This document shows, in pieces, positions 3,976 to 45,147 of a stretch of 64,000 nt of DNA. The notes under the pieces were generated by a model. It did no database searches, was not told the DNA's origin, and saw only the letters and a list, made by a program, of their open reading frames with translations. The DNA comes from Nevskiales bacterium (GTDB lineage Bacteria > Pseudomonadota > Gammaproteobacteria > Nevskiales > JBOICV01), in contig JBOICV010000164.1 in NCBI GenBank assembly GCA_050740255.1, positions 15,035-79,034 of the forward strand, in the 5' to 3' direction. The first letter of the stretch is position 1; every line of letters begins with the position of its first letter. The translations under genes were made by a program, and so were the position numbers.

Positions 3976-4040
3976 CGAGCCGCATAACGGCTCGTCATCC
4001 CGTGCAAGCCGTCCATAGACGGCGCGACACGGGATCCAGA
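3975..4040. repeat. 66-bp structured interspersed repeat, copy 1
   Basis: Identical base for base to 4135-4200. Contains nested hairpins ACGAGCCG/CGGCTCGT and ATCCCGTG/CACGGGAT enclosing GCCGTC/GACGGC. Starts on the last base of the dsbA stop codon. Confidence 0.95.
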
Positions 4041-4054
4041 GTTTTGCAAGCTGG

Positions 4055-4101
4055 ATTCCGGCGCATTCGACAGGCTCAGGACATGCTTCCGCCGGAATGA
4101 C
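4055..4101. repeat. REP/MITE-like element (ATTCCGGCG .. TTCGACAGGCTCAGGACA .. CGCCGGAATGAC)
   Basis: 9-bp inverted repeat ATTCCGGCG/CGCCGGAAT enclosing the TTCGACARGCTCAGGACA core. That core recurs at 6786-6805, 6857-6876 (opposite orientation) and 26590-26609. Confidence 0.85.
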
Positions 4102-4134
4102 AAAGGGTGGGTGCTCGACCCTCGGTTCGCGTAT

Positions 4135-4200
4135 ACGAGCCGCATAACGGCTCGTCATCCCGTGCAAGCCGTCCATAGACGGCGCGACACGGGATCCAGA
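4135..4200. repeat. 66-bp structured interspersed repeat, copy 2
   Basis: 100% identical to 3975-4040 and separated from it by 94 bp. Confidence 0.95.
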
Positions 4201-4225
4201 ATACCGAAAAGCGCCCTCACCCTAG

Positions 4226-4246
4226 CCCTCTCCCAGAGGGAGAGGG
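4226..4246. repeat. G/C-rich REP-type hairpin (CCCTCTCCC-AGA-GGGAGAGGG)
   Basis: Perfect 9-bp inverted repeat just downstream of the L,D-transpeptidase stop; may also act as a terminator stem. Confidence 0.7.
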
Positions 4247-4255
4247 GAAAAGAAG

Positions 4256-5437: not shown

Positions 5438-5442
5438 GTGAG

Positions 5443-6684: not shown

Positions 6685-6785
6685 TGGCTGTCAGCAGGCG
6701 CGCGGCGGCCGCGCCTTTCGGGCACGCATCATAGCAAGAATGACTAACGCTGTAGGCGAATTCCGATCGCCCTGAGGTATCAAAG

Positions 6786-6876
6786 CCTGTCCTGAGCTTG
6801 TCGAATGGGGGCAACCGCTCCGCGCCCGTTCGTGCTTCGATACGCCGCAGGCGTACCCTGTCCTGAGCTTGTCGAA
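6786..6876. repeat. two copies of the CCTGTCCTGAGCTTGTCGAA core (REP/MITE family)
   Basis: Identical 20-mers at 6786-6805 and 6857-6876. They are the reverse complement of the TTCGACAAGCTCAGGACAGG core at 26590-26609. Confidence 0.9.
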
Positions 6877-6902
6877 GGATCAGTACGAACGGAGTGAATC
6901 AG

Positions 6903-7667
6903 TCATGCCAGATAGCCGCCGTCGGCGGTGATACAGCTCCCGGTCACATAACTGGCGGCATCCGACGCCAGGAACAAGATGGCGGGTGCGATCTCGTCTG
7001 GATGTGCCACCCGCTGCATCGGCACATTGGGCAAAAAGGTCTTGAGCATCTGGTCGTTCTTGACCAGGGCCGAGGCGAACTTGGTATCGGTGATGCCGGG
7101 CAATACCGCGTTCACGCGGATCTTGTGCGGCGCGCATTCTTTGGCGAAAGCCTGCGTCATGTTGATGATGGCGGCCTTGGTCACCGAATAAATCGCCTGG
7201 AACATGCCCGGGCTGACGCCGTTGATTGAGGCGGTGTTGACGATGCTGCCGCCGCCCTGCCTCTTCATAATCTGCCCGATTTTCTGCGACATGTAGAAAA
7301 AGCCGCGCACGTTCACATCTATGGTTTTTTCCATCGCATCGAGCGGCGTGTCGAGCACATGGCCGAAGTAAGGATTGGCGGCGGCATTGTTCACCAGGAT
7401 ATCCACTCGTCCGAACTGTTTCTCGACCTCGGCGGCGAAGGCGTCAATCGCCGTCACTTCACCAACGTGACAGACCAGCGCCGTCGCTTTGCCGCCTTCC
7501 TTCAGGATTGCTTCTGCGACCGCACCGCTGCCGTCCAGTTTGCGGCTGGAGCAGATCACATGTGCGCCGTAAGCGGCGAGCAGCCTGGCGGTGCTCTCGC
7601 CGATGCCGCGTGAGGCGCCGCTGACGATGGCAACTTTGCCGCTGAGGTTAAAGATGTCCTTTTTCAT
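6903..7667 (-). CDS. SDR-family oxidoreductase
   Basis: 254 aa. GASRGIG cofactor motif, NNAA, and the YSVTK catalytic Tyr/Lys. Confidence 0.9.
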   Translation of the reverse strand: MKKDIFNLSGKVAIVSGASRGIGESTARLLAAYGAHVICSSRKLDGSGAVAEAILKEGGKATALVCHVGEVTAIDAFAAEVEKQFGRVDILVNNAAANPYFGHVLDTPLDAMEKTIDVNVRGFFYMSQKIGQIMKRQGGGSIVNTASINGVSPGMFQAIYSVTKAAIINMTQAFAKECAPHKIRVNAVLPGITDTKFASALVKNDQMLKTFLPNVPMQRVAHPDEIAPAILFLASDAASYVTGSCITADGGYLA

Positions 7668-7688
7668 GGGTTGTCCTGAAGAATCGAA

Positions 7689-8756
7689 CTAGAGATCGGA
7701 CTTGGCAATGACTTCGTCGCAAATCTTGCCAAGATAAGTCACGAACTGGCCGAACATCGCAAAACGCTGGTCGGTCACTTGCTTGTGGTAGTAGCGGTAG
7801 TAAATCTGCTGGGCAATCACCGCCAGGCGAAACAAGCCAAACACATAGTAGAAATCGACATTCTCTACTTTGACTCCCGTCTGTGCTGCGTAACGCGCGA
7901 CCATTTCCTTGCGCGTCAGCATGCCGGGCAGATGAGTCGGGCCCATGCGCGACAGTTGCAAGGGCGCCGGATCGTTTTTTTCGACCCAGTAGGACAGGGT
8001 GCAGCCAAGGTCCATCAAGGGATCGCCCAGCGTAGTCATTTCCCAGTCGAGCACGCCGATGATTTGCAGCGGGTTCTCTTGGTCGAGCACCACGTTGTCG
8101 AATTTGTAATCGTTGTGGATGATGCCGATATAGCCTGAGTCGCCGGGCTGTTTGTCCTGCAGCCATTGCATGATGGCTTCGCAACCGGGCACATCGTCGG
8201 TCTTGGCTTTGCCGAAGCGCCCCATCCAGCCTTCGATCTGCCGCTTGACGTAACCCTGCGGGTGTCCGAAATCCGCCAGCCCCGCCTTGACGTAGTCCAC
8301 TTTGTGCAGCTTGGCCTGTAGATCAATCAGATTCTCGCAAAGCTGGCGACATTGCGCCGTCGTAAGCGGCATGTCCTTGGGCAAGTCCTTGCGCAGCACT
8401 ACGCCGTGAAAGCGCTGCATCAGATAAAACGGGGCGCCGATGACGGACTCGTCTTCGCAATACGCATAGGCTTTCGGCGCCTGCGCGAACAGCGGCTGCA
8501 GTTTCGACAGCACGCGGAATTCGCGGCCCATATCGTGCGCGCTCCTGGCCTTGGTGCCCGGCGGCGGGCGTCGCAGCACCATTTCGGTATTGCCGACGGT
8601 GACCAGATAAGTGAGATTGGAATGCCCACCGGGAAACTGTGCGATGGAAATGGCGCCCTTGAGTTCCGGCAAGGTTTGGCGGACATGGGCTTCGACCTTG
8701 GCGGTATCCAGCTCCTCCCCTTTACGGAACTGCGTCGCGGAATCTTCAGCGGTCAT
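7689..8756 (-). CDS. phosphotransferase (APH/choline-kinase-like) family protein
   Basis: 355 aa. HNDYKFDNVVL catalytic loop and DWEMTTLGDP motif. Confidence 0.85.
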   Translation of the reverse strand: MTAEDSATQFRKGEELDTAKVEAHVRQTLPELKGAISIAQFPGGHSNLTYLVTVGNTEMVLRRPPPGTKARSAHDMGREFRVLSKLQPLFAQAPKAYAYCEDESVIGAPFYLMQRFHGVVLRKDLPKDMPLTTAQCRQLCENLIDLQAKLHKVDYVKAGLADFGHPQGYVKRQIEGWMGRFGKAKTDDVPGCEAIMQWLQDKQPGDSGYIGIIHNDYKFDNVVLDQENPLQIIGVLDWEMTTLGDPLMDLGCTLSYWVEKNDPAPLQLSRMGPTHLPGMLTRKEMVARYAAQTGVKVENVDFYYVFGLFRLAVIAQQIYYRYYHKQVTDQRFAMFGQFVTYLGKICDEVIAKSDL

Positions 8757-9497: not shown

Positions 9498-10211
9498 CTA
9501 GCGATAAGTGATTAACGCGGGGTCGGCGGCCAGGTACAGATGCGTGATGTTGTTGAGCTCCAGCAGGTAGTAACCCGAGCGGCGCACCTGTACTCGCGTG
9601 ATGGAAGCGTTGGCGATGCCCCAGTTGACGCGCATGGCCATATCGTCCGACAGCTTCAACGCGGCGCGCACCGCCACCGAAATCGCGCCGCCGGAAGTAA
9701 AGACCGCGACGTGTTCATCCTTGGCATGGCGCTCATGCAAGCGCGTCAGACCGGCTTCAACCCGCGCGACGAAATCCGTCCACGACTCCATCTGGCCGTG
9801 CTCGGAAGTCTCGCCGCGCAACCAGCAGGCGATCATTTGCTCGAAGGCGCGCTGAAACGTACGCCGGTCCTTGAACAGCAGCGTGCGATCGGCCTGCAGC
9901 ATGGCGGCCAGCTCGGCATCCGCCTTTAACGCGGCCGGCAGATAGCATTTGAACAAGCCATTGGCGTCATACTCGTTGAATGCGCTTTCCGTCTGGGGCG
10001 CCGGCATCGCGCCATGGGCTCGCACCGCAATCTCAGCGGTATCCGCCTGGCGCAACATGTCGCCGGAGTAGACGCCGGCAAAACTCAGGCCGAGTCGTTT
10101 AAGATGGCGGCCGGTGACTTCGGCCTGCCGTTGGCCAATCGCCGAGAGGCGGTCATAATTGTCGCCGCCGAAAGAAGCTTGTCCGTGGCGGATGAGATGA
10201 ATATGAGCCAT
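9498..10211 (-). CDS. histidine phosphatase (phosphoglycerate-mutase-like) family protein
   Basis: 237 aa. N-terminal LIRHGQ catalytic motif, with downstream His/Glu in the expected context. Confidence 0.85.
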   Translation of the reverse strand: MAHIHLIRHGQASFGGDNYDRLSAIGQRQAEVTGRHLKRLGLSFAGVYSGDMLRQADTAEIAVRAHGAMPAPQTESAFNEYDANGLFKCYLPAALKADAELAAMLQADRTLLFKDRRTFQRAFEQMIACWLRGETSEHGQMESWTDFVARVEAGLTRLHERHAKDEHVAVFTSGGAISVAVRAALKLSDDMAMRVNWGIANASITRVQVRRSGYYLLELNNITHLYLAADPALITYR

Positions 10212-26788: not shown

Positions 26789-27508
26789 ATGAAGCACGCA
26801 AAGCTGCTGGCCGCTGTGCTGGTCTTGTTCAGTGCGCCGGCGCTGGCCCAGGTCAGCGGCAATATCACCGCCATCAGTGAGTACATGTTCCGCGGCGTCG
26901 CCCAGGAGGGCGGCGCGGCGCTGCAGGGCAGCCTGGACTATAGCCGCGAAGACGGCTGGTATTCGGGCGTCTGGGGTTCCAATTGCAGCGAATGCGGCGG
27001 CAACGAAATTGACTTTTACGGCGGCTGGACGGGTGAAGTCGGCCGTGGCGTAACGCTCGATGCCGGCGTGGTCTATTACCTGTTTACCGAGGACGCAGAA
27101 GTCAGCGGCGCGCCGGACATCGACTATCCGGAAATCTATCTCGGCGCCGGCTATGACGGCTTGAGCGGCACGCTTTACTACAGCAATAAGCTGGTGGACG
27201 AATTGAGCGACATCCCGGGCAGCGACCAGACGGGGTTTTATTTCACCGCGGATTACACCCATGCGCTGCGCGAGGGCCTGGAATTGGTGTTGCAGGTGGG
27301 GCGCAGTTGGGGCGATGGTGTTGACGCCGTCTTAGGCGACGCCTACACCGATTACAGCGTCACCGTGGTAAAAACGCTGGACGACGGCTTCAGCCTCAGC
27401 GCCGCGGTAATCGATACCGACCTGGACGCTGATGCCACCGCCACGACACCGGCCAGGGAGGACGACCCCAAGTTTGTGGTGGGTTTGAGCAAGGATTTTG
27501 CGTTTTAA
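26789..27508 (+). CDS. TorF-family putative porin, copy 2
   Basis: 239 aa. Signal peptide, signature AISEYMFRGVAQ..ALQGSL, DYPEIYLGA, C-terminal ..SKDFAF. Confidence 0.8.
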   Translation: MKHAKLLAAVLVLFSAPALAQVSGNITAISEYMFRGVAQEGGAALQGSLDYSREDGWYSGVWGSNCSECGGNEIDFYGGWTGEVGRGVTLDAGVVYYLFTEDAEVSGAPDIDYPEIYLGAGYDGLSGTLYYSNKLVDELSDIPGSDQTGFYFTADYTHALREGLELVLQVGRSWGDGVDAVLGDAYTDYSVTVVKTLDDGFSLSAAVIDTDLDADATATTPAREDDPKFVVGLSKDFAF

Positions 27509-27656: not shown

Positions 27657-30600
27657 TCATCCCTCATCCGCCTGAACCACCAGCAAATCCTGCCCCGCCG
27701 CCACGGCGCCGCCTTCCTTGCAGAACAGATGCGTCAGGATGCCGTCGCAGGGCGCGGCCAGGGAGAATTCCATTTTCATGGATTCGACGACGACCAGGGT
27801 TTGGCCCTGTTTTACGGCGTCGCCCACCCGGGCTTCTAGCCTCCACACGCTGCCGGCGACAGGGGTTGTCACCGGGCGCGCGTGTTCGGGCAGCTCCAGT
27901 TCGCGCTCGACGCCCGCCGCCGCCAGCGTCAGGTCGTTGGCGACCACGTCCTGTCCGGCGGCCTTCCAGCGTTCGCGCTCAGCTTCGAAAGCGGCCTGCT
28001 GGCGGGCCCTGAACTCGCCGATGGAAGCGGCGTTGGCCTCCAGGAAGAGGCGGTAGTCCTTGAGGCGGAAGCGGGCGGCTTCCAGCTTCAAGCGGAATCT
28101 GCCGCTGGCGAAATCCTCGCGCAGCTTGAGCAGCTCCGCCTCGCCCACCGGGTAGAAGCGCAGCTGGTCGAAGAAGCGCAGCAACCACGGTTGCGTGAAG
28201 TCGGCCGTGCGGCGGTGGCGGTTCCACATTTGCACCGTGCGGCCGACGAACTGGTAGCCGCCAGGCCCTTCCATGCCATACACGCAGAGATAGGCGCCGC
28301 CGATGGCCACGGCATTCTCCGGGGTCCACGTGCGGGCCGGGTTGTACTTGGTGGTGACCAGCCGATGGCGCGGGTCCAGCGGCGTCGCCACCGGCGCGCC
28401 GAGGTACACGTCGCCCAGGCCCATGACCAGGTAGCTGGCATCGAACACCACCCGGTACACGTCCTCGGTGGATGCCAGCCCGTTGATGCGGCGAATGAAC
28501 TCGATGTTGCTTGGACACCAGGGCGCATCGGGCCGCACCGACTGCATGTACTTGTCGATCGCCAGCCGGGTCGCCGGGTCGTCCCAGGACAGGGGTAGAT
28601 GGACGATGCGCGATGCCACCTCCATGTCGTCGAGACTGGGCAATCCCGCTTCCAGCGCCACGATTTTTTCGATCAATTCGTCCTGATCGGCGAGGCGGGG
28701 ATCGAAGTGGATTTGCAGCGAGCGGATGCCGGGCGTGAGGTCGAGCACCCCCCCGATCCTCCCGGCGCCGATTTCGTCCCGCAGCGCCTGCATCAGCGCG
28801 TGGATGCGAAAACGCAGTGCGAGATCGAGCACCGGCGGACCCATTTCGATCAGCAGGTTCGCGTCGCCCGATTGCCGGATCACCAAGGCGGGCCTCTCGT
28901 CCTCCCGTTCAAGCTGGCGCAGTACCGGCGTGCCGAGGAGGGCGTGTGCCACCGGCAAGCTGGCGAATGCCGGCGCGGGCGAGTGAAGGCCGGCGATGGC
29001 CGCGTCCTGGGCGGCTTGCAGGGCACGCGCCTGCGCGCCGGTGAGACGCTTGAAGCGAACCGTGGCGCCCGGCTTCAATTGACCCAGCTTCCACAACTCG
29101 GCCTGAACGATGCAGGCGGGGCAGACGAAACCGCCCAGGCTGGGTCCGTCGGGACCGAGGATGACCGGCATGTCGCCGGTGAAATTGACGGCGCCGATGG
29201 CATAGGCGTTGTCGTGGATATTCGAAGGATGCAGCCCCGCCTCACCGCCGTGCGCGCGCGCCCACTGCGGCCTGGGGCCGATCAGGCGGACCCCGGTTCG
29301 GGAGGAGTTGTAGTGCACTTCCCAGGCGGTGGCGAAGAAGCTCGCGATGTCGGCCTCGGTGAAAAAATCCGGCGCGCCATGGGGGCCGTACAGCACGCCG
29401 ATTTCCCAAGCGTCGCTCAGCGTCGGTTGCAGTCGGGCGTCCAGCTCGCTCACGCTTCCGTGTCGCTCGACGGGGATACGGGCTGTGATGTGCAACACGT
29501 CACCGCTACGCAGAGTGCGCCCGCCATGGCCGCCGAACTGGCCGAGGGTGAAGGTGGATTTGGAGCCGAGGGTGTCGGGCACCTCGAAGCCTCCGGCTAC
29601 GGCCAGGTAGCTGCGCAGCCCGGCGCCCTGCACGGCGCCCAGCTTGAGCACGCTGCCCGCCGGCACCGGATGGGCCTGCCATCCGGCCACGGGCGTGCCA
29701 TCCAGGGTGGCCTGCAGGGCCGCGCCGCCGAGGGCGATCAGGCTATCGCAATTGAAGCGCAAGCTCGGTCCGGCTGCCGTGAGTTCCAGCGCCGCGGCCC
29801 CTTCACGGTTGCCCACCAGCCGGTTGGCCAGACGCATGGACAAGTTGTCCATCGGGCCGGACGGCGGCACGCCCACATCCCAATAGCCTTGCCGTCCCGG
29901 CCAGTCCTGGATGCTCGACTGCAAGCCGGGCTCCAGCACGTCGGCGGTCGCCGGCCGGTAGCGGAAGCCGTCCAGCATGCGGGTGGTCTGGCGGCCGGCG
30001 ATGAAGTCCGGACTGGCCAGCACCTGGGCCAGGTAAGCCAGGTTGGTTTCGATGCCGGCCACGGTGCTGGCCTGCAACGCAGCGATCAGCTTGGCGCGCG
30101 CCGCCTCGCGAGTCGCGCCGTGGGCGATGAGCTTGGCCAGCAGCGGGTCGTAGTTGGGCGGCACCTCGGTGCCGGCCTCGACCCAGCCGTCGACACGTAT
30201 TCCGTCCGGGTAGGCCACGGCGCTGAGCAGGCCTGTCGACGGCTGAAAATTCTTGTTGGGATCTTCAGCGTAGAGGCGGACCTGGATCGCCGCACCGTGC
30301 GGTTCGATGACGAAGCTGTCGAGCGCCGGCAACTCGCCGGCGGCCAGGCACACCATCCACTCCACCAGGTCCACGCCGGTCACGGCTTCGGTGACGCCAT
30401 GCTCCACCTGCAAACGGGTGTTCACTTCGAGGAAATAGAACGCGCCGGCGCCGACGTCATAGACGAATTCCACGGTACCGGCGGAGCGATAGTTCACCGC
30501 CTGGCCGAGCTTGACGGCGGTGGCCAGCAGAGCGGCGCGTTGCGCGTCGCTCAAGCCGGGTGCCGGCGTTTCCTCCACCACCTTCTGGTTGCGTCGCTGC

Positions 30601-31289
30601 ACCGAGCAATCGCGCTCGCCCAGGGCGATCACGCCGCCATGGCCGTCGCCGAAGATCTGTACTTCGATGTGGCGCGCGTGCTCGACGTATTTTTCGAGAT
30701 AGCTGCCGGCTTGCTTGAAGTTGGCGCGGGCCAGGCGCTCGACGGTGGCGTAGGCTTGCGCCAGTTCGTCCTCGCTGCGGATCAGGCGCAGGCCGATGCC
30801 GCCGCCGCCGGCGGTGCTCTTCAGCATCAGCGGATAGCCGATGCGCCGCGCCTCGGCGGCGGCATGGCCGGCGTCGGCCAGCAGGCCGGACCCCGGCAGC
30901 AGCGGCACGCCATTTTCTTCGGCCAGTTGCCGCGCCGTATGCTTGAGGCCGAAGTCGCGCATGTGCTGCGCCGCCGGGCCGATGAAGACAATGCCGGCAG
31001 CAGCGCAGGCGTCGGCGAAATCCGGGTTCTCGGAGAGGAAGCCGTAGCCCGGGTGGATAGCCTGGGCACCGCAGGCCTGGGCGATTTCAAGAATCCGGTC
31101 GGCCCTCAGATAACTTTCGCTGGCCGGGGCCGGGCCCAGCAGGTAAGCCTCGCCGGCCTGCCGCACATGGCGGGCGCCGGCGTCGGCGGCGGAATACACC
31201 GCCACCGACGCCACGCCCAAGCGGTCGAGAGTGCGCTGGATGCGGCAGGCGATGGCGCCGCGATTGGCGATCAGGACTTTGCTGAACAT
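27657..31289 (-). CDS. urea carboxylase / guanidine carboxylase (biotin carboxylase + KipA/KipI-like carboxyltransferase + biotinyl domain)
   Basis: 1210 aa. N-terminal [19 protein letters not shown]-grasp biotin carboxylase, central allophanate-hydrolase-subunit-like domains, C-terminal biotin attachment VESMKME. The substrate (urea vs guanidine) cannot be read from sequence by eye. Confidence 0.95.
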
Positions 31290-31305
31290 CGATTACCGGT
31301 GCGGG

Positions 31306-31971
31306 TTACGGCGCATCCCACAACAGAAACCGCACCGGGGTCGGGTTGTAGGCATTGCAGGGATTGTTGAGCTGCGGGCAGTTGGAGGCGAGCAGCCACA
31401 GGTCCATCTCGGCGCGCAGTTCCACATACTTGCCCGGCGCGGAGACGCCGTCCGCGAAACTGAGTTCGCCCGCCGCTGTCACCGGCACGTTCATGAAGAA
31501 GTTGATGTTGGGCACCAGGTCGCGCTTGCCGATGCCGATGTCGGCGTGCTGCAGGGCGGTCAGGAAATTGTCGCGGCAACTGTGCATGAACTTTTTCTGC
31601 AAGGCGTAGCGCACCGAATTGCTCTCGGCGGCACAGGCTCCGCCGAGCGTGTCATGACGCCCGCAGGTATCGGCGACGAGGGTCAGCATCAGCTTGCCGT
31701 CGTTGCTGTACAGCGCCGAATCCGTGGTCAGGTAGATGCCGCCCTGGCGCAGCAGGGTTTGCGTCGCGCTGTAGTGTTCGGCCGGGTCGTGCCGGTTGTA
31801 GAACAGCGCGTCCACCGCCTGGTTGCCTTCCAGGTCGACGATGCGCACGGTCTGCCCGCGCCCGATCTCGAGCAGGTAAGGCTCGCCGGCGGGCAGGGTG
31901 TGGTCGAGCACGGCGGCGGCGGGGTCGAAGCGGCTTTCGCGGATGCGGATGGCCGCGCTGGCATCGGTCAT
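31306..31971 (-). CDS. urea-amidolyase-associated protein UAAP2 (DUF1989; carboxyguanidine deiminase subunit-like)
   Basis: 221 aa. Paralogous by eye to the upstream 270-aa protein, in the canonical position immediately upstream of the carboxylase. Confidence 0.8.
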   Translation of the reverse strand: MTDASAAIRIRESRFDPAAAVLDHTLPAGEPYLLEIGRGQTVRIVDLEGNQAVDALFYNRHDPAEHYSATQTLLRQGGIYLTTDSALYSNDGKLMLTLVADTCGRHDTLGGACAAESNSVRYALQKKFMHSCRDNFLTALQHADIGIGKRDLVPNINFFMNVPVTAAGELSFADGVSAPGKYVELRAEMDLWLLASNCPQLNNPCNAYNPTPVRFLLWDAP

Positions 31972-31980
31972 GGCAGTTCT

Positions 31981-32793
31981 CTATCCGATGAGATAAAGCA
32001 TTTCGGCGTTGTGGATGGCGCGGGCGTTCTCGGGACGGAAGCCGCGGCAGTAATCGTCTTTCGGCGCCGGTCCGGAGCGCCAGGCCGCCAGGCCGACCGG
32101 CTTCGGCGCGTAGGCGGGCGACGGATCGAGCGGGTGCGGCGCGGTCGAACAGGCGAGCAGCACGTCCATCTCGAAGCGCAGTTCCACATGATCGCCGGGC
32201 TGGCTGTGATCGGGAACGAAATGGAAACGCCCTTCGCCGTCCACGCTCACCTTGGAGAAGAAATTCACCGGCGCCGTCAGGTCGCGCTTGCCCAAGCCGT
32301 ACTTGCCCAGTTCGATCAGCAGGCCGTCGCGCCCGGAGCGGTACATGCCGTTGCGCGCCGCCTGGTAGTTGCGCACGCCATATTTGCGCTGCATCGAGCC
32401 GGCGTCCAGCAGCAGGCCCAGGGGGTCGTGCCAGCCCAGCGTATCGGCGGTGATCGAGGCCAGGGCGCGACCCATGTCGCTCATCAGCACGTGGCCGCGA
32501 GTGTAGTGGGCCGTGTGCTGTGCCTTGAGCGAGTCCGGCATGTTGTAGCGCTCCAGCTTTTCGCGCGCCGAGTACAACACCAGGCTGATGTTGGCGCCGG
32601 CTGCCAGCGCCGTCAGGCGCAGCGTGGTGCCGCGCGCCAGCAGATACGACCAGTGGCCGCCGCCGGGAACTCGCTCGGAGAACAGCACCGACCCGGCCGC
32701 CAGGTCGGGCGCGAAACTGCGCCAGTGTTCCGGCGCATCCACCGGCGCGCTCGGGGGCGGATTTTGCGGAGTGAATTCAGCCGGGGTTTGCAT
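31981..32793 (-). CDS. urea-amidolyase-associated protein UAAP1 (DUF1989; carboxyguanidine deiminase subunit-like)
   Basis: 270 aa, in the canonical UAAP1-UAAP2-carboxylase order. Confidence 0.8.
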   Translation of the reverse strand: MQTPAEFTPQNPPPSAPVDAPEHWRSFAPDLAAGSVLFSERVPGGGHWSYLLARGTTLRLTALAAGANISLVLYSAREKLERYNMPDSLKAQHTAHYTRGHVLMSDMGRALASITADTLGWHDPLGLLLDAGSMQRKYGVRNYQAARNGMYRSGRDGLLIELGKYGLGKRDLTAPVNFFSKVSVDGEGRFHFVPDHSQPGDHVELRFEMDVLLACSTAPHPLDPSPAYAPKPVGLAAWRSGPAPKDDYCRGFRPENARAIHNAEMLYLIG

Positions 32794-33298
32794 GATGTTC
32801 CACGTTCGAAGAGCGCTTGGCGCGGGTGGCGGAAAGGGCAGTCGCCGGCAGCGGATGCAGGGGCGGCATCATGGCCGCCAGTAGCTGCAGCTGGCCGGTC
32901 ACCACGCCGCGCAGCGTGATCATATCGTTGGCGATGTCGCGCAAGCGTTTGGCAGGACCCTGGATCAGGATCACTTCCAGCAACTGGTCCTCGCTCAGAT
33001 GCACATGCAAGGAACTGATCACCTCGTCGAGATGGCGGTATTGGAGATCGGCCAGCTTCTTTAGCAAGCCCCGGGTGAGGCGGTCGTAGAGCAGCGTGAC
33101 GGTGCCCACCATGACGTGGTTGCCCAGTTCGCGCTTGTGCTCGGCCAACTGGTAGTTGACCATCTCGCCGATGGCCTGCGAGCGGCTGCCATAGCCGCGG
33201 CTCTGCACCATCCGGTCCAATTCCGCGAGCAGGTCTGGCGGCAGCGAGATGCTGATGCGGCTCACCAGGCGGTTGCTTGCATGCTTTTTTTTTGGCAT
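32777..33298 (-). CDS. NikR-family ribbon-helix-helix regulator with a degenerate metal site
   Basis: ATG 33298 within ORF 32777..33673. The N-terminus SRISISLPPDLLAELDRMVQSRGYGSRSQAIGEMV matches the NikR RHH (E. coli RVTITLDDDLLETLD..RGYNNRSEAIRD). The C-domain has SLHVHLSEDQLLEV versus E. coli [14 protein letters not shown]. The 3' end overlaps the UAAP1 start by 17 nt. Confidence 0.8.
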   Translation of the reverse strand: MPKKKHASNRLVSRISISLPPDLLAELDRMVQSRGYGSRSQAIGEMVNYQLAEHKRELGNHVMVGTVTLLYDRLTRGLLKKLADLQYRHLDEVISSLHVHLSEDQLLEVILIQGPAKRLRDIANDMITLRGVVTGQLQLLAAMMPPLHPLPATALSATRAKRSSNVEHHANPG

Positions 33299-33308
33299 TC
33301 CGTCCCCG

Positions 33309-34670
33309 CTAAAACAGGTAACTGTAGCGTTCGATCTCCCACTGGCTGACGCTGAGGTGATACGCCTCCCATTCCTCGGTTTTATAACGAATGAATTCGT
33401 CGCGCAATTCCTTGCCCAAGGTCGCTTGCACCAGTGGGTCGGCGGCGAAGGCGGCCACCGCCTCCTGCAGCGTCTGCGGCAGGAACTCGATGCCGCGGGC
33501 TTGGCGCTGTTCCTCGCTGATGGCATAGAGGTTGTCTTCGTTCGGGTTGCCCGGATCGAGTTTTTCGCGGATGCCTTCGAGTCCCGCCGCCAGCACCAGC
33601 GTCGCGGCGAGGTAGGGGTTGACCGCGCCGTCGGCGTTGCGCGACTCGCAGCGCCCACCGCCGGCCGGAACACGCACCGAGTTGGTCCGGTTGTTGGAAC
33701 CGTAGGAGTTGAACACGGGAGCCCACGAGTAGTAGCTCATCGCGCCGCGCCGCACCAGGCGCTTGTAGCTGTTTACCGTGGGGGCGAACACCGCGCACAG
33801 CGCGCGGCCGTGCTTGAGCATGCCGGCGATGAACTGGTAGCCCAGGGGCGTGAGCCCGATGCCGCGCCGGTCCTCCTGCGGGTCGCAGGCGAACAGGTTG
33901 CGGCCGCTGCCCGGATCGTAGAGCGACAGGTTGAAGTGGGCGCCGTTGCCGGTCTTGTCGGCGAAGGGCTTGGGCATCATGGTGGCGAGCAGGCCCTGTT
34001 CCCTGGCGTAGTGCTTGGCCATGAAGCGGAAGAAGATCAGGCGGTCGCAGGTGGTCAGGGCATCGGCATAGTTGAAGTCGAACTCGAACTGGCCGTTGGC
34101 GTCTTCGTGATCGAAGGAATACAGATCCCAACCCAGGCCGTTGATGGCCGTCGCCATCTGGTCCAACCACGGAAAGCTATTGGTGAAACCGCGCAGGTCG
34201 TAGCAAGGCTTGGTGAGCTTGTCATCGGCATCCGGCACCGACAGGCTGCCGTCGGCATGTTGCTTCAGCAGGAAGATCTCGCACTCGATGCCGAGGTTCA
34301 TGCCGAAGCCCATTTGTGCCGCTCGCGCCAACTGGCTTTGCAGCGCCACCCGGGTGTTGAGCGGATAGGGCCGGCCCTGGTAATGGTTGTCGGCGGGAAT
34401 CCAGGCGATCTTGGGCTCCCAGGGCAACTGGATCAGGCGGCTGAAATCCGGGACCGAGGTTATTTCGTCGTCATTGGGCGCCTGGCCCAGACCGTCCAGC
34501 GCATAGCCGGTGTAGCGCTCGGAACCGTGCGCCATAGCTTGCAGATGTTCGATGGGAACCACCTTGGCCTTGGGTATGCCGTGGATATCGACGTAGGCAC
34601 CGATGCAGTACTTGACCCCCTTTTCGGACAGCTCTTGCTGCAGGCGGGAGACAGCATCGATGGCGGACAT
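33309..34670 (-). CDS. glutamine-synthetase-family ligase (GlnA-like / gamma-glutamyl-amine ligase type)
   Basis: 453 aa. GS beta-grasp N-domain and catalytic-domain motifs (ECEFFL-like [22 protein letters not shown]). Confidence 0.85.
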
Positions 34671-34698
34671 GGTCTTTCCTCAGGGGCATGCAAGCGGG

Positions 34699-35493
34699 TC
34701 AGAAATCGGCGGTTACCGAGGTAGCGTAGGGCTGGTCCAGCGGGGGGTTCTCGGCCATCCCACGGCGGACCAGGTCGCTCAAGTCCTCGACCAGCCAGTC
34801 GAACCAGCGCGCGCCTTTCTCGGCGGTGGCCAGGCTGGGCTGGCCGGTGACGCCGTTGCGGCTGCTGCGGTTGACCGGATGGGCGAAGACGCAGCCGCCG
34901 CTGCGATCGGGATCGTCGGCGGCGGCTAGCCGTTCGGGACGTACTCCGCCGGGCGCGATAGCCAGCATCAGCGAAGTCTCGGCATCGTTGGCATGCCAGT
35001 CGGCGGCATCGGCAAAAAAATGGAATTGGCGCACCCGCTCGCTGATGTTGGCGGTATCGATCACGGCCACCATCAAGTCGTCATGCTCGGCGCGCAACAT
35101 TTCCAGCGCGCAGCGCAGGGGCGCGGCATTGGTCACGTGGGCGTTGACGATGAACAGCCGGCGCACGCCGCTGTGATAGGCCCAGTCGCCGATCTGCTTG
35201 ACCAGTTCGATCAGGGTGATCGGCTGCACCGCGAGGGTGCCGGGCCAGCGTTGGCTATGACCGATGGAACAGCCGTAAGGCAAAGTGGGCAGCATCGGTA
35301 CGCCGGTTTTTTCGGCGACGGCGGCGCATAGGTGTTCGGCGATCACCGTGTCCACGCCGCAGCCCAGATGCGGGCCATGTTGTTCGGTGGCGCCGACCGG
35401 CAGCAGGGCAGCGTGTCCGACCCGCGCCAAAACCGCGGGTATCTCGGACCAGGTCAGATCGGACCAGCGCCGGGAGCTTGGCCTATTCGACAT
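34699..35493 (-). CDS. creatininase-family amidohydrolase
   Basis: 264 aa with the family motif [13 protein letters not shown] and downstream His/Asp/Glu metal ligands. Overlaps the ABC ATPase stop by 11 nt. Confidence 0.8.
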
Positions 35494-36397
35494 TGTCGTT
35501 GACGTCCGTGAGCCGGATCAGCTGCGGCTTGACCGTCGCGTCCTCTTCCGCATCGAAGCTGACCGGCGGATGGATCAGTTCTTCCAGGCGTGCCCTGGTG
35601 GCGCGGAATTCAGCAGAGTTGAACTGCGCCGGAGCGCGCGGCCGCGGTACCGGTACCTCGATGAATTCCTGCACCTCGCCCGGCTGCGCCTTGAGCACCA
35701 GGATGCGGTCCGCCAGATAGGCGGCTTCGTCGAGATCGTGGGTGATGAACAGCACCGTGATGTCGATGTTCTTCCAGATGTCGAGCAGGTGCGATTGCAT
35801 GCGCGCCCGGGTCTGCGCGTCGAGCGCGCCGAAGGGCTCATCCATGAGCAGGATGCGGGGCTGATTGACCAGGGCGCGGGCGATCGCCACTCGTTGCCGC
35901 ATGCCGCCCGACAATTGATGCGGATAGGCGTCGGCGAACTTCGACAGGCCGACCAGGTCCAGCCACAGCAGGGCGTCGCGCTCGGCCTCGTCGCGGCCGT
36001 AGCCGCTCGTCTGGGGACCGAACATCACGTTCTTCTTGACCGTGAGCCAGGGGAACAGGGAATAGCCCTGGAACACCATGCCGCGGTCGCGGCCCGCGCC
36101 AAGCACTGGCTTTCCGTCCAGCAACACCTCCCCCGAACTATGGCTTTCCAGGCCGGCGAGGATGCGGATCAGGGTGGACTTGCCGCAGCCCGAGGGCCCG
36201 ATCGCGCAGATGAATTCGCGGCGATGGATCTTGAAGCTGACGTTGCGCAAGGCGTCCACTGCTCCCTGGGACGAGACGAAACGCTTGTTGAGATCGCGCA
36301 CTTCGAGGATGACTTCGCGCCGGTGGATTTTTTCGAAGCGCGCCTTGACCGCATCCGACTGCTGCAGGTAGTGGGGCCGGGGCAGTTCCGCTTGCAT
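35483..36397 (-). CDS. ABC transporter ATP-binding protein (NitT/TauT nitrate/sulfonate/bicarbonate family)
   Basis: 304 aa. Walker [10 protein letters not shown], signature LSGGMRQR, Walker B LLMDEP. Confidence 0.9.
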
Positions 36398-36400
36398 GGC

Positions 36401-37363
36401 TCAGCTCCGCTCCTGCGGACGGTCCCAGGGGAACAAGCGGCGGCCGAGCCGGTCGAGCGCCGCGTCGGTGCCGAAGCCGATGATGCCGATGATGATGATC
36501 GCGGCGTAGACGTTGTCGAAGTGCTGATAGCGCGCCTGCTGGGTGATAAAAAAGGTGATGCCCGAGCTGGAGCCGATCAGTTCCGCCACGATCAGGTAGG
36601 TCCAGGCCCAGCCCAGCAGGATGCGCTGGTCGCGGTAGAGGTCGGGCAGGATGCCGGGGACCACCACCCGCGTCAGCAGGCGCAGGCGGCGCGCGCCCAG
36701 GGTCTTGGCCGCCTCGAGAATGGTGGTGTCGAGTTTACGCGTGGTGTTGGCGACGATCAGCACCTGCTGGAACAGGGTGCCGATGACGATGATGGCGATC
36801 TTGGGACTGTCGTAAATGCCCAGCACGGCTACCGCCAACGCGCCGAAGGCGGGCGCGGGCAGGTAGCGGAAGAATTCGATGAAAGGCTCGTTGAGCCGGG
36901 ACAGGGTGACGTAGGTGCCCGAGAGAATGCCCAGCGGCACGCCGATCAGCGAGGAGAGCAGGAAGCCCCAGGCGATGATCTGAACGCTATGCCACAGACT
37001 CTCGTGCAGCCAGGGCGCGTCCCTCTGTTCCGGCGCGCGAGTGAAGGCGGTGTAGAAGGCGGCCGCCACCCGATGCGGCGCCGGCAGGTAAATCGGGTTG
37101 GCCGCGCGGCCCTTGGGCAGCGCTAGTCCCTGGGCGCGCATCTGGGCGACCTCGTCGGCGAAGACATCCTTGTCTACCAGCATGCCGACCTGGAAATAAT
37201 CCACGGCGCCGACCTCCTCGACCAGCACCTTGGGGTGCCAGACGAAGGGGACGTAGCTGACCACGCACCAGAGCAGGGTCGGCAGCAGAAACGAGCCGAG
37301 CGTCAGCAGCGAGCGCCGGCGTCGTGGGCGCCATTGGGGAATCATGTGGACGCCGCTGCCCAT
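36401..37363 (-). CDS. ABC transporter permease (NitT/TauT family)
   Basis: ORF 36401..37399; ATG 37363 is preceded by GGGAGG 5 nt upstream. Multiple TM segments, BPD-transport EAA-like loop (EAAKTLGA). Confidence 0.8.
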   Translation of the reverse strand: MGSGVHMIPQWRPRRRRSLLTLGSFLLPTLLWCVVSYVPFVWHPKVLVEEVGAVDYFQVGMLVDKDVFADEVAQMRAQGLALPKGRAANPIYLPAPHRVAAAFYTAFTRAPEQRDAPWLHESLWHSVQIIAWGFLLSSLIGVPLGILSGTYVTLSRLNEPFIEFFRYLPAPAFGALAVAVLGIYDSPKIAIIVIGTLFQQVLIVANTTRKLDTTILEAAKTLGARRLRLLTRVVVPGILPDLYRDQRILLGWAWTYLIVAELIGSSSGITFFITQQARYQHFDNVYAAIIIIGIIGFGTDAALDRLGRRLFPWDRPQERS

Positions 37364-37413
37364 GGAGGCCTCCCGCCGACGCCGGGTCGGTGGGAACAAA
37401 AAAATAAACTCGG

Positions 37414-38412
37414 TTACTCGGCGTTGGTGAAGGACGGATCGAGATAGCTGTCAACGTTCTGTGGCGCCTTGTAGACGCCGTTAGTGACGTTGAAGCTGTC
37501 GGCTACCTTGGTGGAGCCATAGAGGGACTCGAAGCCGTCGCCCTCGACGTAAATCTTCCTGCCTTCACTCAGACTGAGGAGCTTGGTGCCCTTGAGCAGG
37601 GGCAGGTAAGCCTCGGGCGCAATGCCCACCCGGGCCGCCATGATCTTGACCGCATCCGGCTGGGTCTTGGGGTCCTCGATGTAGCTCACCACCCGATCCC
37701 AGACCTTGACCACCTTCTGCCAATCGGCGCGCCGGCTCTTGACGCTGGCTGGACTGACGGCGAGCACGTCGTAGATCAGCCCCGGTTCGTCGGCCGAGGT
37801 GTAGATGGGATGGGAGCCCGGCACGGCTTTCATCGCCTCGCCGATGACCGGCTGCCAGGCGCCTACCGCGGCGATGTCGGCCGCGCCCAGTATTTGCGGC
37901 ATTTCGTTGGTCTTGGCGTTGACCAGGGTGAGGTCGGATTCCTTGAGACCGGCTTTCTCCAGGCCGTTAAGCAACAGCAGGTGCTCCACCAGGCCGGCTT
38001 CCACCGCCACCTTCTTGCCCTTCAGGTCCTTGAGGGACTTGTACTGGGGCTTGGCGACGATCATGTCGTTGCCGTTGGAATAGTCGGTCAGCATCACCAT
38101 GATGCTCTTGGCGCCGCCGGCGCCGGTCACCAGCGCGTCGCCATTGGTCATGGTGACGGCATCAATCTTGCCGGCGGTGAAGGCGTCCATCGAGGCGGAA
38201 TAATCGAACCACTCGAAAGTGACGTCTACACCCGCCTCCTTGAACCAAGCCTTGTCTATCGCCACCTGCCAGGCCACCCAGCCCGGCCAGTCGCTATAGC
38301 CGATCTTGAGCGGCGCAGCCGCCTGGGTGGCGACGGATGCCAGCGTGGTGGCGCCCACCAGCAGGCCTGCGAACCAGCGTTTCACCCTTCCCCCGGTCCT
38401 GTTCGTTTCCAT
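37414..38412 (-). CDS. ABC transporter periplasmic substrate-binding protein (NMT1/THI5-like)
   Basis: ORF 37414..38556; ATG 38412 is preceded by AAGGAG 7 nt upstream. It gives signal peptide ..LVGATTLASVATQAAA followed by PLKIGYSDWPGW. Confidence 0.85.
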   Translation of the reverse strand: METNRTGGRVKRWFAGLLVGATTLASVATQAAAPLKIGYSDWPGWVAWQVAIDKAWFKEAGVDVTFEWFDYSASMDAFTAGKIDAVTMTNGDALVTGAGGAKSIMVMLTDYSNGNDMIVAKPQYKSLKDLKGKKVAVEAGLVEHLLLLNGLEKAGLKESDLTLVNAKTNEMPQILGAADIAAVGAWQPVIGEAMKAVPGSHPIYTSADEPGLIYDVLAVSPASVKSRRADWQKVVKVWDRVVSYIEDPKTQPDAVKIMAARVGIAPEAYLPLLKGTKLLSLSEGRKIYVEGDGFESLYGSTKVADSFNVTNGVYKAPQNVDSYLDPSFTNAE

Positions 38413-38434
38413 GGTTCGACTCCTTGAAGATGCG

Positions 38435-38462
38435 GTATTACGATTCAACACGAAAGTCATAC
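38435..38462 (-). promoter_or_regulatory. NikR-type operator candidate GTATGA-N16-TAATAC
   Basis: The minus strand reads GTATGA-ctttcgtgttgaatcg-TAATAC (plus strand GTATTA 38435-38440, TCATAC 38457-38462). This is one mismatch from the E. coli nik operator GTATGA-N16-TCATAC. It lies between the sigma54 promoter and the SD/ATG of the first operon gene. Confidence 0.5.
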
Positions 38463-38482
38463 TTGGCGCGTCCTCTATCTCT

Positions 38483-38498
38483 AGCAAGAACGGGGCCA
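38483..38498 (-). promoter_or_regulatory. sigma54 (-24/-12) promoter of the ABC-to-carboxylase operon
   Basis: The minus strand reads TGGCCC-CGTTC-TTGCT, with exact GG-N10-GC spacing versus consensus TGGCAC-N5-TTGCW. It is about 70 nt upstream of ATG 38412. Confidence 0.6.
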
Positions 38499-38814
38499 GT
38501 GCCGGGTCAGCGGTCAAGCGTCTGTTTGCGCCAGGTTTGTGGTTTTTCGGGGGCACAGGCGGCCCTTGGGCGCCCGTTCAGCCTTGTGCGAGTGCGCCGA
38601 TGCACCAAAGTAAGCGCGTAGGGAAGCGCACCGGGTTAGCGGCGCGTAGCCGGTTCCGTGTCATTCACGCACCACTGTCTTGGTCCTGGTGTCCGTGACT
38701 TACGCGGGAGATCGCGCAGACCGGCCCTAACTCAGGTTGACCCACGACCGGTTGCGGAGTAATTTCGCTGGGAGGGGCGCTGACATTCCTATTCTTTTGG
38801 GGGACAAGCACGAC

Positions 38815-40635
38815 GTGCAGGAGCGCGCCGATGCGTCCGGCCTCGGCCTCGATTTGACGACCCTCACGGCCCGGTACGGGGCCGGCGCTACGACCCCCTC
38901 GGAGGTCGTCCGCGTCGTCTACCGGCGCATCCCCGAGTACCTCTCGAACCCCCTCTGGATCACCCTCCGGCCCGAGGAGGACGTCCTCGGCGAGGCCCTG
39001 GCCCTCGAAGCGCGCGGGCCCGCGCGAGGGCCGCTCTACGGACTGCCCTTCGCGGTCAAGGACAACCTCGACTGCGCGGGGTTGCCGACGACCGCGGCCT
39101 GCCCGGCCCTGACCTATATCCCCGCGAAGAGCGCCCATGCGGTGCAACGTCTCCTGGATGCCGGGGCCCTCCTCATCGGCAAGACCAACCTGGACCAGCT
39201 CGCGACCGGGCTCACGGGTACTCGTTCGCCGCACGGTGTCTGCCGCAACCTGTTCGATGAGCGTTACATCGCCGGGGGCTCGAGCAGCGGCTCGGCGCTC
39301 TCGGTGGCCGCGGGTCTCGTCTCTTTCGCGCTCGGTACCGACACGGCCGGCTCGGGCCGGGTGCCGGCGGCGTTCAACAACATCGTGGGTCTCAAGCCGA
39401 CGCGCGGGCTGGTGAGCACCCGCGGGCTGGTGCCGGCCTGCCGCTCGCTCGACTGCGTCTCGGTCTTTGCGCTCTCCTCGACCGACGCGCTGGCGGTCCT
39501 GCGCGTGCTTGCCGGCCACGACCCCGAGGACCCGTATTCGCGGTCGGACGCCTCGGTGATCGGGCTTGCGCCCGTCGCGCCGCCGGCGAGCTTTCGGTTC
39601 GGCGTCCCGAACGCGCTCGAGTTCTTCGGCGACGGCGAGGCGGAGCGGCTCTTTCACGCCGCGCTGCGACGCCTCGAGACGCTCGGCGGCACAGCCATCG
39701 AGATCGATTTCGCCGCGTACCGGGAAGCCGGGCGGCTCCTCTACGGCGGCCCCTGGCTCGCCGAGCGCTTCCTCGCACTCGCGCCCCTCCTGGCGCGCGA
39801 TCCCGATGTCCTGCACCCCGTCGTGCGCGCCGTGGTCGAACCCGGGGGACGACACTCGGCTGCCGAGTGTTTCGCCGCGCAGCATCGGCTACAGGCACTC
39901 GTCCAGGCCACCCGCCGAGACTGGGCGGCGATGGACCTCCTCGTCACCCCCACGGCCGGGACGTGTTATACGCGCGCGGCCATTGAGGAGGAGCCCATCC
40001 GGCGCAACGCCGATCTCGGGTACTACACGAACTTCGTCAACCTCATGGATCTGTGCGCCCTGGCCGTGCCCGCCGGCTTCACCGGCTCGGGTCTGCCGTT
40101 CGGGGTGTCGCTGCTCGCACCCCCCTTCCGTGAAGGCTTCTTGTGCGCGCTGGGCCATGCGCTACACGCCGCGCAAGGGTTGACGGTGGGGGCGACCCGC
40201 CATCGTCTGCCTGTCGGTCCGGCCGCGCTACCAGCGGACGGCACGACGGTGCGGCTCTGCGTCTGCGGTGCGCACATGTCGGGACTGCCCTTGAACGGCG
40301 AGCTGCTGCGGCTGGGTGCGCGGTTTGTCGGACCCGCGCGCACGGCGCCGCGTTACCGTCTTTATTGCCTCGATCGCTTCGCGCCCCCGCGGCCGGGGCT
40401 CGTGCGCGAGGCGCTCGGCGCCGCGATCGAGGTCGAGGTGTGGGCGCTGCCGGTCGCGGGCTTCGGCGCCCTGGTCGCCGGGATTCCCGCCCCACTCGCG
40501 ATCGGACGGGTCGAGCTCGAGACCGGGGAGGAGGTCGCGGGCTTCCTGTGCGAGGCCCACGCGACCGAGGGCGCCCGCGACATCACCACGCATGGCGGTT
40601 GGCGCGGGTATCTGGCCACCGGGGGCGGGCCATGA
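38815..40635 (+). CDS. atzF: allophanate hydrolase (amidase-signature family)
   Basis: ORF 38737..40635. Amidase signature GGSSSGSA and the C-terminal AtzF-type domain are present. The start is uncertain: TTG 38737 coincides with a -35-like TTGACC, so I prefer GTG 38815, preceded by GGGGGA. Confidence 0.85.
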   Translation: MQERADASGLGLDLTTLTARYGAGATTPSEVVRVVYRRIPEYLSNPLWITLRPEEDVLGEALALEARGPARGPLYGLPFAVKDNLDCAGLPTTAACPALTYIPAKSAHAVQRLLDAGALLIGKTNLDQLATGLTGTRSPHGVCRNLFDERYIAGGSSSGSALSVAAGLVSFALGTDTAGSGRVPAAFNNIVGLKPTRGLVSTRGLVPACRSLDCVSVFALSSTDALAVLRVLAGHDPEDPYSRSDASVIGLAPVAPPASFRFGVPNALEFFGDGEAERLFHAALRRLETLGGTAIEIDFAAYREAGRLLYGGPWLAERFLALAPLLARDPDVLHPVVRAVVEPGGRHSAAECFAAQHRLQALVQATRRDWAAMDLLVTPTAGTCYTRAAIEEEPIRRNADLGYYTNFVNLMDLCALAVPAGFTGSGLPFGVSLLAPPFREGFLCALGHALHAAQGLTVGATRHRLPVGPAALPADGTTVRLCVCGAHMSGLPLNGELLRLGARFVGPARTAPRYRLYCLDRFAPPRPGLVREALGAAIEVEVWALPVAGFGALVAGIPAPLAIGRVELETGEEVAGFLCEAHATEGARDITTHGGWRGYLATGGGP

Positions 40636-42625: not shown

Positions 42626-42641
42626 AGCATCATCTATGCCA
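42626..42641 (-). promoter_or_regulatory. sigma54 (-24/-12) promoter candidate for TorF copy 3
   Basis: The minus strand reads TGGCAT-AGATG-ATGCT with exact GG-N10-GC spacing, about 70 nt upstream of ATG 42557. Confidence 0.5.

Positions 42642-44583: not shown

Positions 44584-45147
<564 letters not shown>

Follow-up and report, generated by a model that had tools for sequence, protein, structure and literature searches.

The DNA analysed here, called the window throughout, is a 64,000-nucleotide stretch of a Nevskiales bacterium genome (contig JBOICV010000164.1), and our subject is the control region of a predicted guanidine carboxylase pathway operon that it carries: a 402-bp spacer at 38413-38814, lying between two divergent transcription units, in which a predicted sigma-54 promoter is followed by a candidate operator for a NikR-family regulator encoded in the same operon. 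The limits of this spacer, drawn by a first-pass annotation that had read the letters without database searches, are right if the divergent allophanate hydrolase gene (38815-40635, plus strand; Pfam and NCBIfam) begins at its probable start, GTG 38815. On the minus strand, the operon opens with the gene for a periplasmic substrate-binding protein of the NMT1/NitT-TauT type (37414-38412, ATG at 38412; Pfam and NCBIfam), followed over 27657-37399 by genes for an ABC permease, an ABC ATPase, a creatininase-family protein, a type III glutamine-synthetase-like protein, the NikR-like regulator, two DUF1989 proteins (UAAP1/2) and the carboxylase. The NikR-like gene (32777-33301, minus strand) encodes ribbon-helix-helix and NikR_C domains, the DUF1989 pair is of the carboxyguanidine deiminase type, and the urea/guanidine carboxylase is 1210 residues long. 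Gene order was established from the open reading frames of the window together with Pfam and NCBIfam, and synteny was compared across loci. The pathway gene set is represented by a carboxylase matching TIGR02712 at 1843 bits, by TIGR03424 and TIGR03425, both above their cut-offs, and by TIGR02713 at 748 bits. By gene content, the cluster is a predicted guanidine carboxylase pathway operon, with guanidine or urea as the candidate substrate.

For comparison, we used 80 loci encoding orthologues of the binding protein (63-80% identity, one per species, L001-L080), amounting to 1.29 Mb. The first-pass annotation had placed a -24/-12 element at 38483-38498 on the minus strand, and the sequence there, TGGCCCCGTTCTTGCT, is as described, departing from TGGCAC-N5-TTGCW at one position and holding its GG and GC dinucleotides 10 nt apart in the correct register. 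The match alone is not significant, sites with at most one mismatch numbering 2 in the window against 2.5 expected. Its position, though, is conserved: an element with at most two mismatches and intact GG and GC is found in about 69 of the 80 orthologous loci, ending 45-93 nt before the ATG of the substrate-binding protein gene, or 206-227 nt before it where a riboswitch intervenes, as in a Methylophilaceae group. Chance would supply about 0.04 such elements per 300-nt upstream region and, because positional conservation is far above this expectation, the predicted promoter of the operon is real and of the sigma-54 type. With the C of the GC dinucleotide (38484) set at -12, transcription is predicted to start at 38472, give or take 2 nt, leaving a leader of about 60 nt before the ATG at 38412, as estimated earlier. 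A Shine-Dalgarno sequence, AAGGAG, occupies 38420-38425 on the minus strand, 7 nt before that ATG, and aligns with AGGAG in relatives.

Two further sites in the window resemble this promoter. At 44715-44730 (plus strand), TGGCACAGGAAGTGCT is the sole other one-mismatch match to the sigma-54 consensus. A second sigma-54-like element, TGGCATAGATGATGCT (42626-42641, minus strand; two mismatches, GG and GC intact), ends 68 nt before the ATG at 42557 of a gene for a porin-like outer-membrane protein, a spacing nearly equal to that at the transporter promoter; the cluster is flanked on its opposite side by a paralogous porin-like gene (26789-27508, plus strand).

No guanidine riboswitch had been seen by eye in this spacer, and covariance models agree. 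At the gathering thresholds of 4227 Rfam families, cmscan of the whole window returned no guanidine class, guanidine-II and guanidine-III included, its matches being one tRNA and anti-hemB; with permissive filters and E up to 10, the interval 38300-38900 likewise contained none, the sole match there being a meaningless one to mir-1473 (E=0.48). The gathering score for guanidine-I (RF00442), 63 bits, is not reached in the window, whereas orthologous aptamers score 76-90 bits with the same tool, so the search method is sensitive to real aptamers. An nhmmer profile of orthologous ykkC aptamers had no match in the window, and the leader RNA is no more structured than shuffled sequences (z = +1.26). 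The earlier point that the leader offers no room for an aptamer also stands: it measures about 60 nt, against leaders of about 200 nt carrying aptamers of about 105 nt in orthologues.

What has to be given up, for this ortholog group, is the premise that guanidine carboxylase loci usually have such a riboswitch. By core-motif scan and nhmmer, a guanidine-I aptamer occupies the same leader in 14 of the 80 loci and lies elsewhere in the locus in 5 more (19/80 in total). Rfam confirms four of the leader aptamers, those among the short loci submitted, at 76-90 bits, and has no guanidine-I match in 15 riboswitch-less relatives. We read the ortholog group as part of the guanidine regulon, with the riboswitch as a minority state within it, and for a member of this group to lack one is nothing unusual in itself.

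The riboswitch-controlled orthologous operons, represented in Methylotenera, Methylophilus and Methylobacterium (L056, L043, L063), resemble the window in gene order and in their binding proteins, which share 63-75% identity with that of the window. In Methylophilaceae, a sigma-54 promoter of the same type lies upstream, and the regulatory device is placed between the start and the ribosome-binding site. They differ in having a longer leader, about 200 nt, that contains an aptamer of about 105 nt, where the window has a 28-bp candidate operator, a leader of about 60 nt and a regulator gene in the operon. Upstream of the guanidine-I riboswitch in L027, L034, L043, L052, L055, L056, L058, L064 and L069, a sigma-54 element and NtrC-like sites are found, about 206-227 nt before the binding-protein ATG; in leaders of the L027 type, a predicted enhancer-dependent promoter and a riboswitch are thereby combined. 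L051, a locus equipped with both the NikR-like gene and the operator, also gives a borderline match to guanidine-II (mini-ykkC) at 8112-8156 (plus strand), downstream of its DUF1989 genes; it scores 32.1 bits, the gathering score being 32.

In the window, the stretch separating the -12 element from the Shine-Dalgarno sequence holds a 28-bp dyad of the NikR-box type (38435-38462, about +11 to +38), reading GTATGAC-N14-GTAATAC on the minus strand. The dyad had been overlooked in the first-pass annotation and was spotted through its likeness to the Escherichia coli NikR operator. The family consensus, GTATTAC-N14-GTAATAC, is a perfect dyad from which the window copy differs at one position; the E. 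coli half-site GTATGA was dropped as a model. Specificity is high: the window copy is the only site with at most one mismatch in 64 kb, and throughout the 1.29 Mb of loci all 11 perfect and all 31 one-mismatch dyads (42) sit in transporter leaders. The dyad begins 2-20 nt after the -12 motif and always covers about +10 to +19, a repressor position because this interval lies within the footprint of the RNA polymerase open complex. Its geometry equals that of published NikR boxes (27-28 bp with arms of 6-7 nt; PMC545781, PMC7055735), among them the E. coli nikABCDE operator, GTATGA-N16-TCATAC (PMC7055735), and the box predicted for other (delta-)proteobacteria, GTGTTAC-N13/14-GTAACAC (PMC545781). 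The dyad also tracks the NikR-like gene, being found in 47 of 48 loci with the gene and in 1 of 13 without it (p = 1e-10), and it lies directly upstream of distant NikR-like genes as well (40-54% identity, same gene neighbourhood). We predict that the dyad is the binding site of the in-operon NikR-like protein.

The NikR-like protein matches Pfam PF01402 and PF08753, passes the cut-off of NCBIfam NF003381 (117 against 105 bits) and matches PDB 2bj1, the NikR of Pyrococcus horikoshii, with E = 9e-30, so that its homology to solved NikR structures is beyond doubt. Exact-sequence look-ups of the binding protein and the NikR-like protein of the window returned nothing; a 173-residue form of the latter is on record, named NikR by NCBI. 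The high-affinity square-planar nickel site of NikR is built from His76', His87, His89 and Cys95 (PMC7055735). Aligned to solved NikR structures, the window protein has Y-H-H-L at these four positions instead of H-H-H-C, with His76 replaced by Tyr and Cys95 by Leu. In an alignment of 49 orthologous sequences from the loci, position 95 is Cys in none (T, M, V, L or I instead) and position 76 is His in four, while His87 is kept in all 49 and His89 in 45. On the DNA-reading strand, Arg3 is invariant in the 49 orthologues, and so is Ser at residues 5 and 7, where E. coli has Thr.

A search of 1.8 billion cluster representatives extended this picture. All 62 canonical NikR representatives are HHHC; none of the top 27 full-length representatives nearest to the NikR-like protein is, and the highest-scoring HHHC protein ranks 32nd of the 150 listed. 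Three of the non-HHHC representatives, with 54%, 48% and 40% identity and the signatures RHHT, RHQR and RQQL, were placed on contigs; they adjoin an NMT1 binding-protein gene or sit within clusters of creatininase, glutamine-synthetase-like, NikR-like, DUF1989, carboxylase and allophanate hydrolase genes, with the dyad directly upstream. The NikR-like gene always lies within or beside transporter, DUF1989, carboxylase and allophanate hydrolase clusters, and the loci examined link it to neither a nickel transporter nor a nickel enzyme. This pattern points to a NikR-like clade dedicated to the pathway, even where no nickel ligand survives, and to a protein that has no canonical nickel site and is thus not NikR in the strict sense. 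Because that site has been lost, we infer that the protein does not report nickel. The "NikR-like repressor" of the first-pass annotation has accordingly acquired an operator that pairs with its gene, and has forfeited a nickel-responsive reading, the ligands being missing. A C-terminal extension, LQLLAA-x-x-PP-[LI]-H (AAxxPP[LI]H; encoded at 32777-32880), is conserved in the 49 orthologues and has no counterpart in E. coli NikR; it may contribute to a new surface for effector binding or oligomerisation.

Set beside E. coli NikR with nikABCDE and the delta-proteobacterial box, the system shares the ribbon-helix-helix plus NikR_C architecture, the conserved Arg3 and a dyad of 28 bp whose 7-nt arms flank a spacer of 14 nt. 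As in E. coli, the regulator gene lies beside its presumed target, and the site overlaps the promoter and start region, implying repression. Unlike E. coli NikR, the window protein has lost two of the four nickel ligands, with Cys95 missing clade-wide, and bears the C-terminal extension; its predicted target is a guanidine/urea carboxylase operon and not nickel uptake, and the promoter concerned appears to be sigma-54-dependent.

The distribution of the two devices among the 80 loci is sharply divided. In riboswitch-bearing leaders the dyad is absent (0/14) and, in loci long enough to judge, so is the NikR-like gene (0/8), whereas riboswitch-less leaders have the dyad in 59 of 66 cases and the gene in 48 of 53. 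The corresponding Fisher p-values, calculated on related genomes with kinship ignored, are 8e-11 for dyad versus riboswitch and 4e-7 for gene versus riboswitch. Within this leader, the riboswitch and the predicted operator with its NikR-like gene exclude each other. On a neighbour-joining tree of the binding protein, the riboswitch state occurs in no fewer than three distinct clades embedded among lineages with the operator state, namely a Methylobacterium group, most Methylophilaceae, and L073. Riboswitch-bearing orthologues retain the sigma-54 element about 210 nt upstream and, because the Methylophilaceae riboswitch sits behind an element of the same type, RNA and protein devices would fill the same slot of the circuit.

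Other arrangements of these parts were also seen. At L062 ~9540-9690, L068 ~2240-2380 and L071 ~7510-7630 (minus), a riboswitch drives the divergent DUF1989-carboxylase-hydrolase operon, and the adjacent operon of transporter, creatininase, glutamine-synthetase-like and NikR-like genes has a sigma-54 element and the operator, both devices thus sharing one spacer. L014, the nearest neighbour of the window on the binding-protein tree, has its transporter, DUF1989, carboxylase and hydrolase genes in one operon; the sigma-54 element is present, and the creatininase, glutamine-synthetase-like and NikR-like genes are absent.

A sigma-54 promoter calls for an enhancer-binding protein, and the earlier statement that no such gene lies in the window is borne out: six-frame inspection revealed no GAFTGA or Walker-A signature, and tblastn with the NtrC central domain gave a best E of 0.46. 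An enhancer-binding-protein gene lies near the cluster in 2 of the 80 related loci. This rarity, together with its absence from the window, indicates a global activator. The two exceptions, at L029 8775-9359 (plus strand) and L065 17989-18579 (minus strand), are about 51% identical to the NtrC central domain, that of L029 lying directly upstream of the binding-protein gene, and may encode dedicated activators in those genomes.

Comparison of orthologous spacers, a step suggested by the first-pass annotation, brought out upstream sites that are conserved family-wide and weak in the window itself. In the closest upstream regions, two adjacent NtrC-like dyads align about 90-130 nt upstream of the -24 element. 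Scored against TGCACCA-N3-TGGTGCA, the best sites of the family agree on average at 9.97 of 14 positions, against 8.27 in shuffles (maximum 8.55), and many loci, including riboswitch-bearing ones, have sites of 10-12/14 at consistent offsets. In the window, the proximal NtrC-like site CGCACTCGCACAAGGCT (38580-38596, minus strand; centre at about -116) matches at 6/14 positions and is the positional homologue of YGCACY-N5-AAKGC in relatives. The distal site, given as its plus-strand sequence TGCACCAAAGTAAGCGC (38601-38617, annotated on the minus strand; centre at about -137), matches at 8/14 with one half-site perfect and lies 21 bp from the proximal one. A tentative site for integration host factor (IHF), AAACAGACGCTTG (38515-38527, minus strand; centre at about -48), has one mismatch to WATCARNNNNTTR; IHF-like sites with at most one mismatch occur in 25 of 70 loci, against about 9 in shuffles (maximum 16), a modest enrichment.

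Control of nitrogen-scavenging operons by sigma-54 and NtrC is ordinary, and NtrC, encoded outside the window, is the most likely activator here. The urea-carboxylase cluster of Burkholderia cenocepacia H111 (BCAS0269-0272) belongs to the NtrC regulon according to transcriptomics (PMC5491218). Like that cluster and NtrC/sigma-54 promoters of the glnAp2 type, the window combines a -24/-12 class promoter with candidate paired dyads 100-140 bp upstream, a possible IHF site between dyads and promoter, a predicted nitrogen-scavenging role and an enhancer-binding protein presumably encoded elsewhere. Unlike them, it has a candidate repressor operator directly downstream of the promoter, and its NtrC-like sites fit the consensus poorly.

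Taken as a whole, these observations make it probable that the operon is under two layers of control, nitrogen regulation through sigma-54/NtrC and an operon-specific repressor of the NikR family standing in for the riboswitch. The first-pass annotation had proposed that control is protein-based, exerted by an enhancer-binding protein together with the NikR-like protein, and this view now draws support from the dyad, the exclusivity with the riboswitch, the conserved NtrC-like sites and the B. cenocepacia regulon (PMC5491218). Under nitrogen limitation, phosphorylated NtrC (NtrC-P), or a similar enhancer-binding protein encoded elsewhere, would loop from the NtrC-type sites at about -116 and -137, possibly helped by an IHF bend at about -48, onto sigma-54 holoenzyme at the -24/-12 element (38498-38483). 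Downstream, the in-operon NikR-family protein would bind the dyad at +11 to +38 and block open-complex formation or promoter escape, supplying an autoregulated, operon-specific second control layer in the logical position of the guanidine-I riboswitch. Expression would then obey an AND gate, requiring nitrogen limitation together with relief of the repressor, which would leave its operator upon guanidine or a close pathway metabolite. That such a compound is the effector is our leading guess, and a tentative one. A fuller version we would call possible but somewhat doubtful: it casts the NikR-family protein lacking Cys95 as a sensor dedicated to guanidine or a pathway metabolite, one that arose from a metal sensor when the metal site was lost and that has repeatedly traded positions with the guanidine-I riboswitch.

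Other explanations bear either on the DNA elements or on the signal. Were the -24/-12 match a product of chance and the operon read from an unrecognised sigma-70 promoter, one-mismatch sites would occur in the window at just the chance frequency that we see (2 against 2.5 expected). Yet about 69 of 80 loci keep the element in position, conserved enhancer-type sites lie upstream of it, the spacer scan contains 0 sigma-70-like sites and a homologous cluster is NtrC-dependent (PMC5491218), leaving this account highly improbable. Equal scepticism applies to the palindrome as a hairpin of the leader RNA, be it an attenuator or an unrecognised riboswitch, instead of a DNA operator. Its arms can form a 7-bp stem, and symmetric double arm changes in some loci (GTAATAC...GTATTAC) keep the pairing, but a dyad bound by a dimer predicts such changes equally well. 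In several loci, moreover, the dyad starts 2-6 nt after the -12 element, which puts the left arm upstream of the start and out of the transcript; in the window, the minimum-free-energy fold omits the stem, and the arm change GTATGAC is uncompensated. The arm sequence is conserved beyond pairing in alpha-, beta- and gammaproteobacterial loci, the dyad tracks the gene of a DNA-binding protein, and distant loci have it in non-transcribed divergent spacers. With a fold no better than shuffles (z = +1.26) and the left arm untranscribed in several loci, we rejected the hairpin, to which we give hardly any credence.

With the architecture kept, the signal could still be a different one. The NikR-like protein might be a plain autorepressor without a small-molecule effector, providing negative feedback while nitrogen status serves as the sole signal. 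Its gene lies inside the operon that would be repressed, its former ligand-site residues are variable, many ribbon-helix-helix repressors are ligand-free, and L014, L076, L078 and L080 manage without regulator and riboswitch alike. We nonetheless find this account rather unlikely, as the full NikR_C domain is kept with many invariant residues and a conserved extra tail, and the way in which it and a ligand-sensing RNA strictly exclude each other at one position points to an equal function. Continued sensing of nickel or another metal, by which metal plenty would repress the ATP-consuming nickel-independent route and favour nickel enzymes (urease, guanidine hydrolase), seems a good deal less likely again. 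It would retain the canonical co-repressor logic, it agrees with the NCBIfam NikR cut-offs being passed, with His87 (49/49) and His89 (45/49) being kept and with a conserved C-terminal tail that usually ends in His, and it has a precedent in the predicted repression of a nickel-independent isozyme by NikR (PMC545781). Against it, Cys95 is absent in 49/49 and His76 in 45/49 orthologues, more remote members from this gene context have the signatures RHQR or RQQL, with one nickel ligand left or none, all 62 canonical NikR representatives are strictly HHHC, and 0 nickel transporters or enzymes are linked in the loci examined.

The combination of sigma-54/NtrC control with a NikR-family repressor in place of the riboswitch, which we favour, has points against it too. 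The NtrC-like sites of the window are weak (6/14 and 8/14), its IHF-like site is merely suggestive, and the start at 38472 is a predicted position derived from motif placement. The counts come from related genomes with about three independent transitions, so that the Fisher p-values overstate the support. L062, L068 and L071 hold a guanidine-I riboswitch as well as the operator and NikR-like gene, on different divergent operons, and the devices are consequently not strict alternatives per locus and could report different signals. Among evaluable loci, L014, L076, L078 and L080 lack a leader riboswitch, operator and NikR-like gene, which makes a substrate-specific control layer appear dispensable. 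Replacements at the nickel-ligand positions vary (Y/F/R/C/H at 76, T/M/V/L/I at 95), suggesting loss of the site more than a new pocket there. Finally, canonical NikR binds DNA when liganded, and this would be the wrong logic for a substrate acting as inducer.

According to a 2025 review, riboswitches are the sole known guanidine receptors besides transporters and enzymes, and guanidine-binding regulatory proteins are yet to be found (PMC12186494). Our literature search found no description linking NikR to guanidine or urea carboxylase, and none linking guanidine, urea carboxylase and NtrC. What appears to be new is a widespread NikR-family subclade without the nickel site, whose candidate NikR-type box follows a sigma-54 promoter, the system alternating with the guanidine-I riboswitch, with a changed target and a proposed changed signal. 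The locus and its relatives thereby offer a concrete and widespread candidate for a guanidine-sensing regulator together with its operator; if borne out, it would be the first known case of a guanidine-responsive protein transcription factor. One cultured carrier is Sideroxydans lithotrophicus, with an orthologue (P0056). They also present a clean natural case in which an RNA sensor and a candidate protein sensor are swapped at one point behind the same sigma-54 promoter. The name "nickel-responsive transcriptional regulator NikR" is probably mistaken for hundreds of database entries, and so would be any nickel regulon deduced from them. In synthetic biology, the operator-regulator pair could serve as an orthogonal, riboswitch-independent control part.

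Some observations concern the rest of the cluster. The creatininase-family and type III glutamine-synthetase-like genes (TIGR03105, 668 bits; 33309-35493, minus strand) lie between the transporter and carboxylase genes; they travel together in many orthologous loci, controlled by riboswitch or operator alike, and are missing from others. Their products may process a guanidino precursor. In L087, a distant relative of the cluster, five kinds of gene are inserted between the glutamine-synthetase-like and NikR-like genes (3412-7916), encoding an FGE-sulfatase-domain protein, an AP_endonuc_2 protein (xylose isomerase-like TIM barrel), a Rieske oxygenase, a short-chain dehydrogenase and a polysaccharide deacetylase-family protein; this insert hints that a guanidino substrate of greater complexity is processed.

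On the other side of the spacer, scanning for a promoter of the allophanate hydrolase gene found no sigma-70-like or second sigma-54-like site and no terminator within the spacer. This gene is divergent from the transporter gene in 0 related loci, which precludes footprinting of its promoter. The part of the spacer nearer to the allophanate hydrolase gene contains an exact direct repeat, GCGCGTAG, in two copies 28 bp apart (38614-38621 and 38642-38649). Farther away, at 1253-1348 (plus strand), the anti-hemB (Burkholderia RNA 7) family of Rfam is matched in this Nevskiales genome with 51.6 bits, against a threshold of 49.5 bits.

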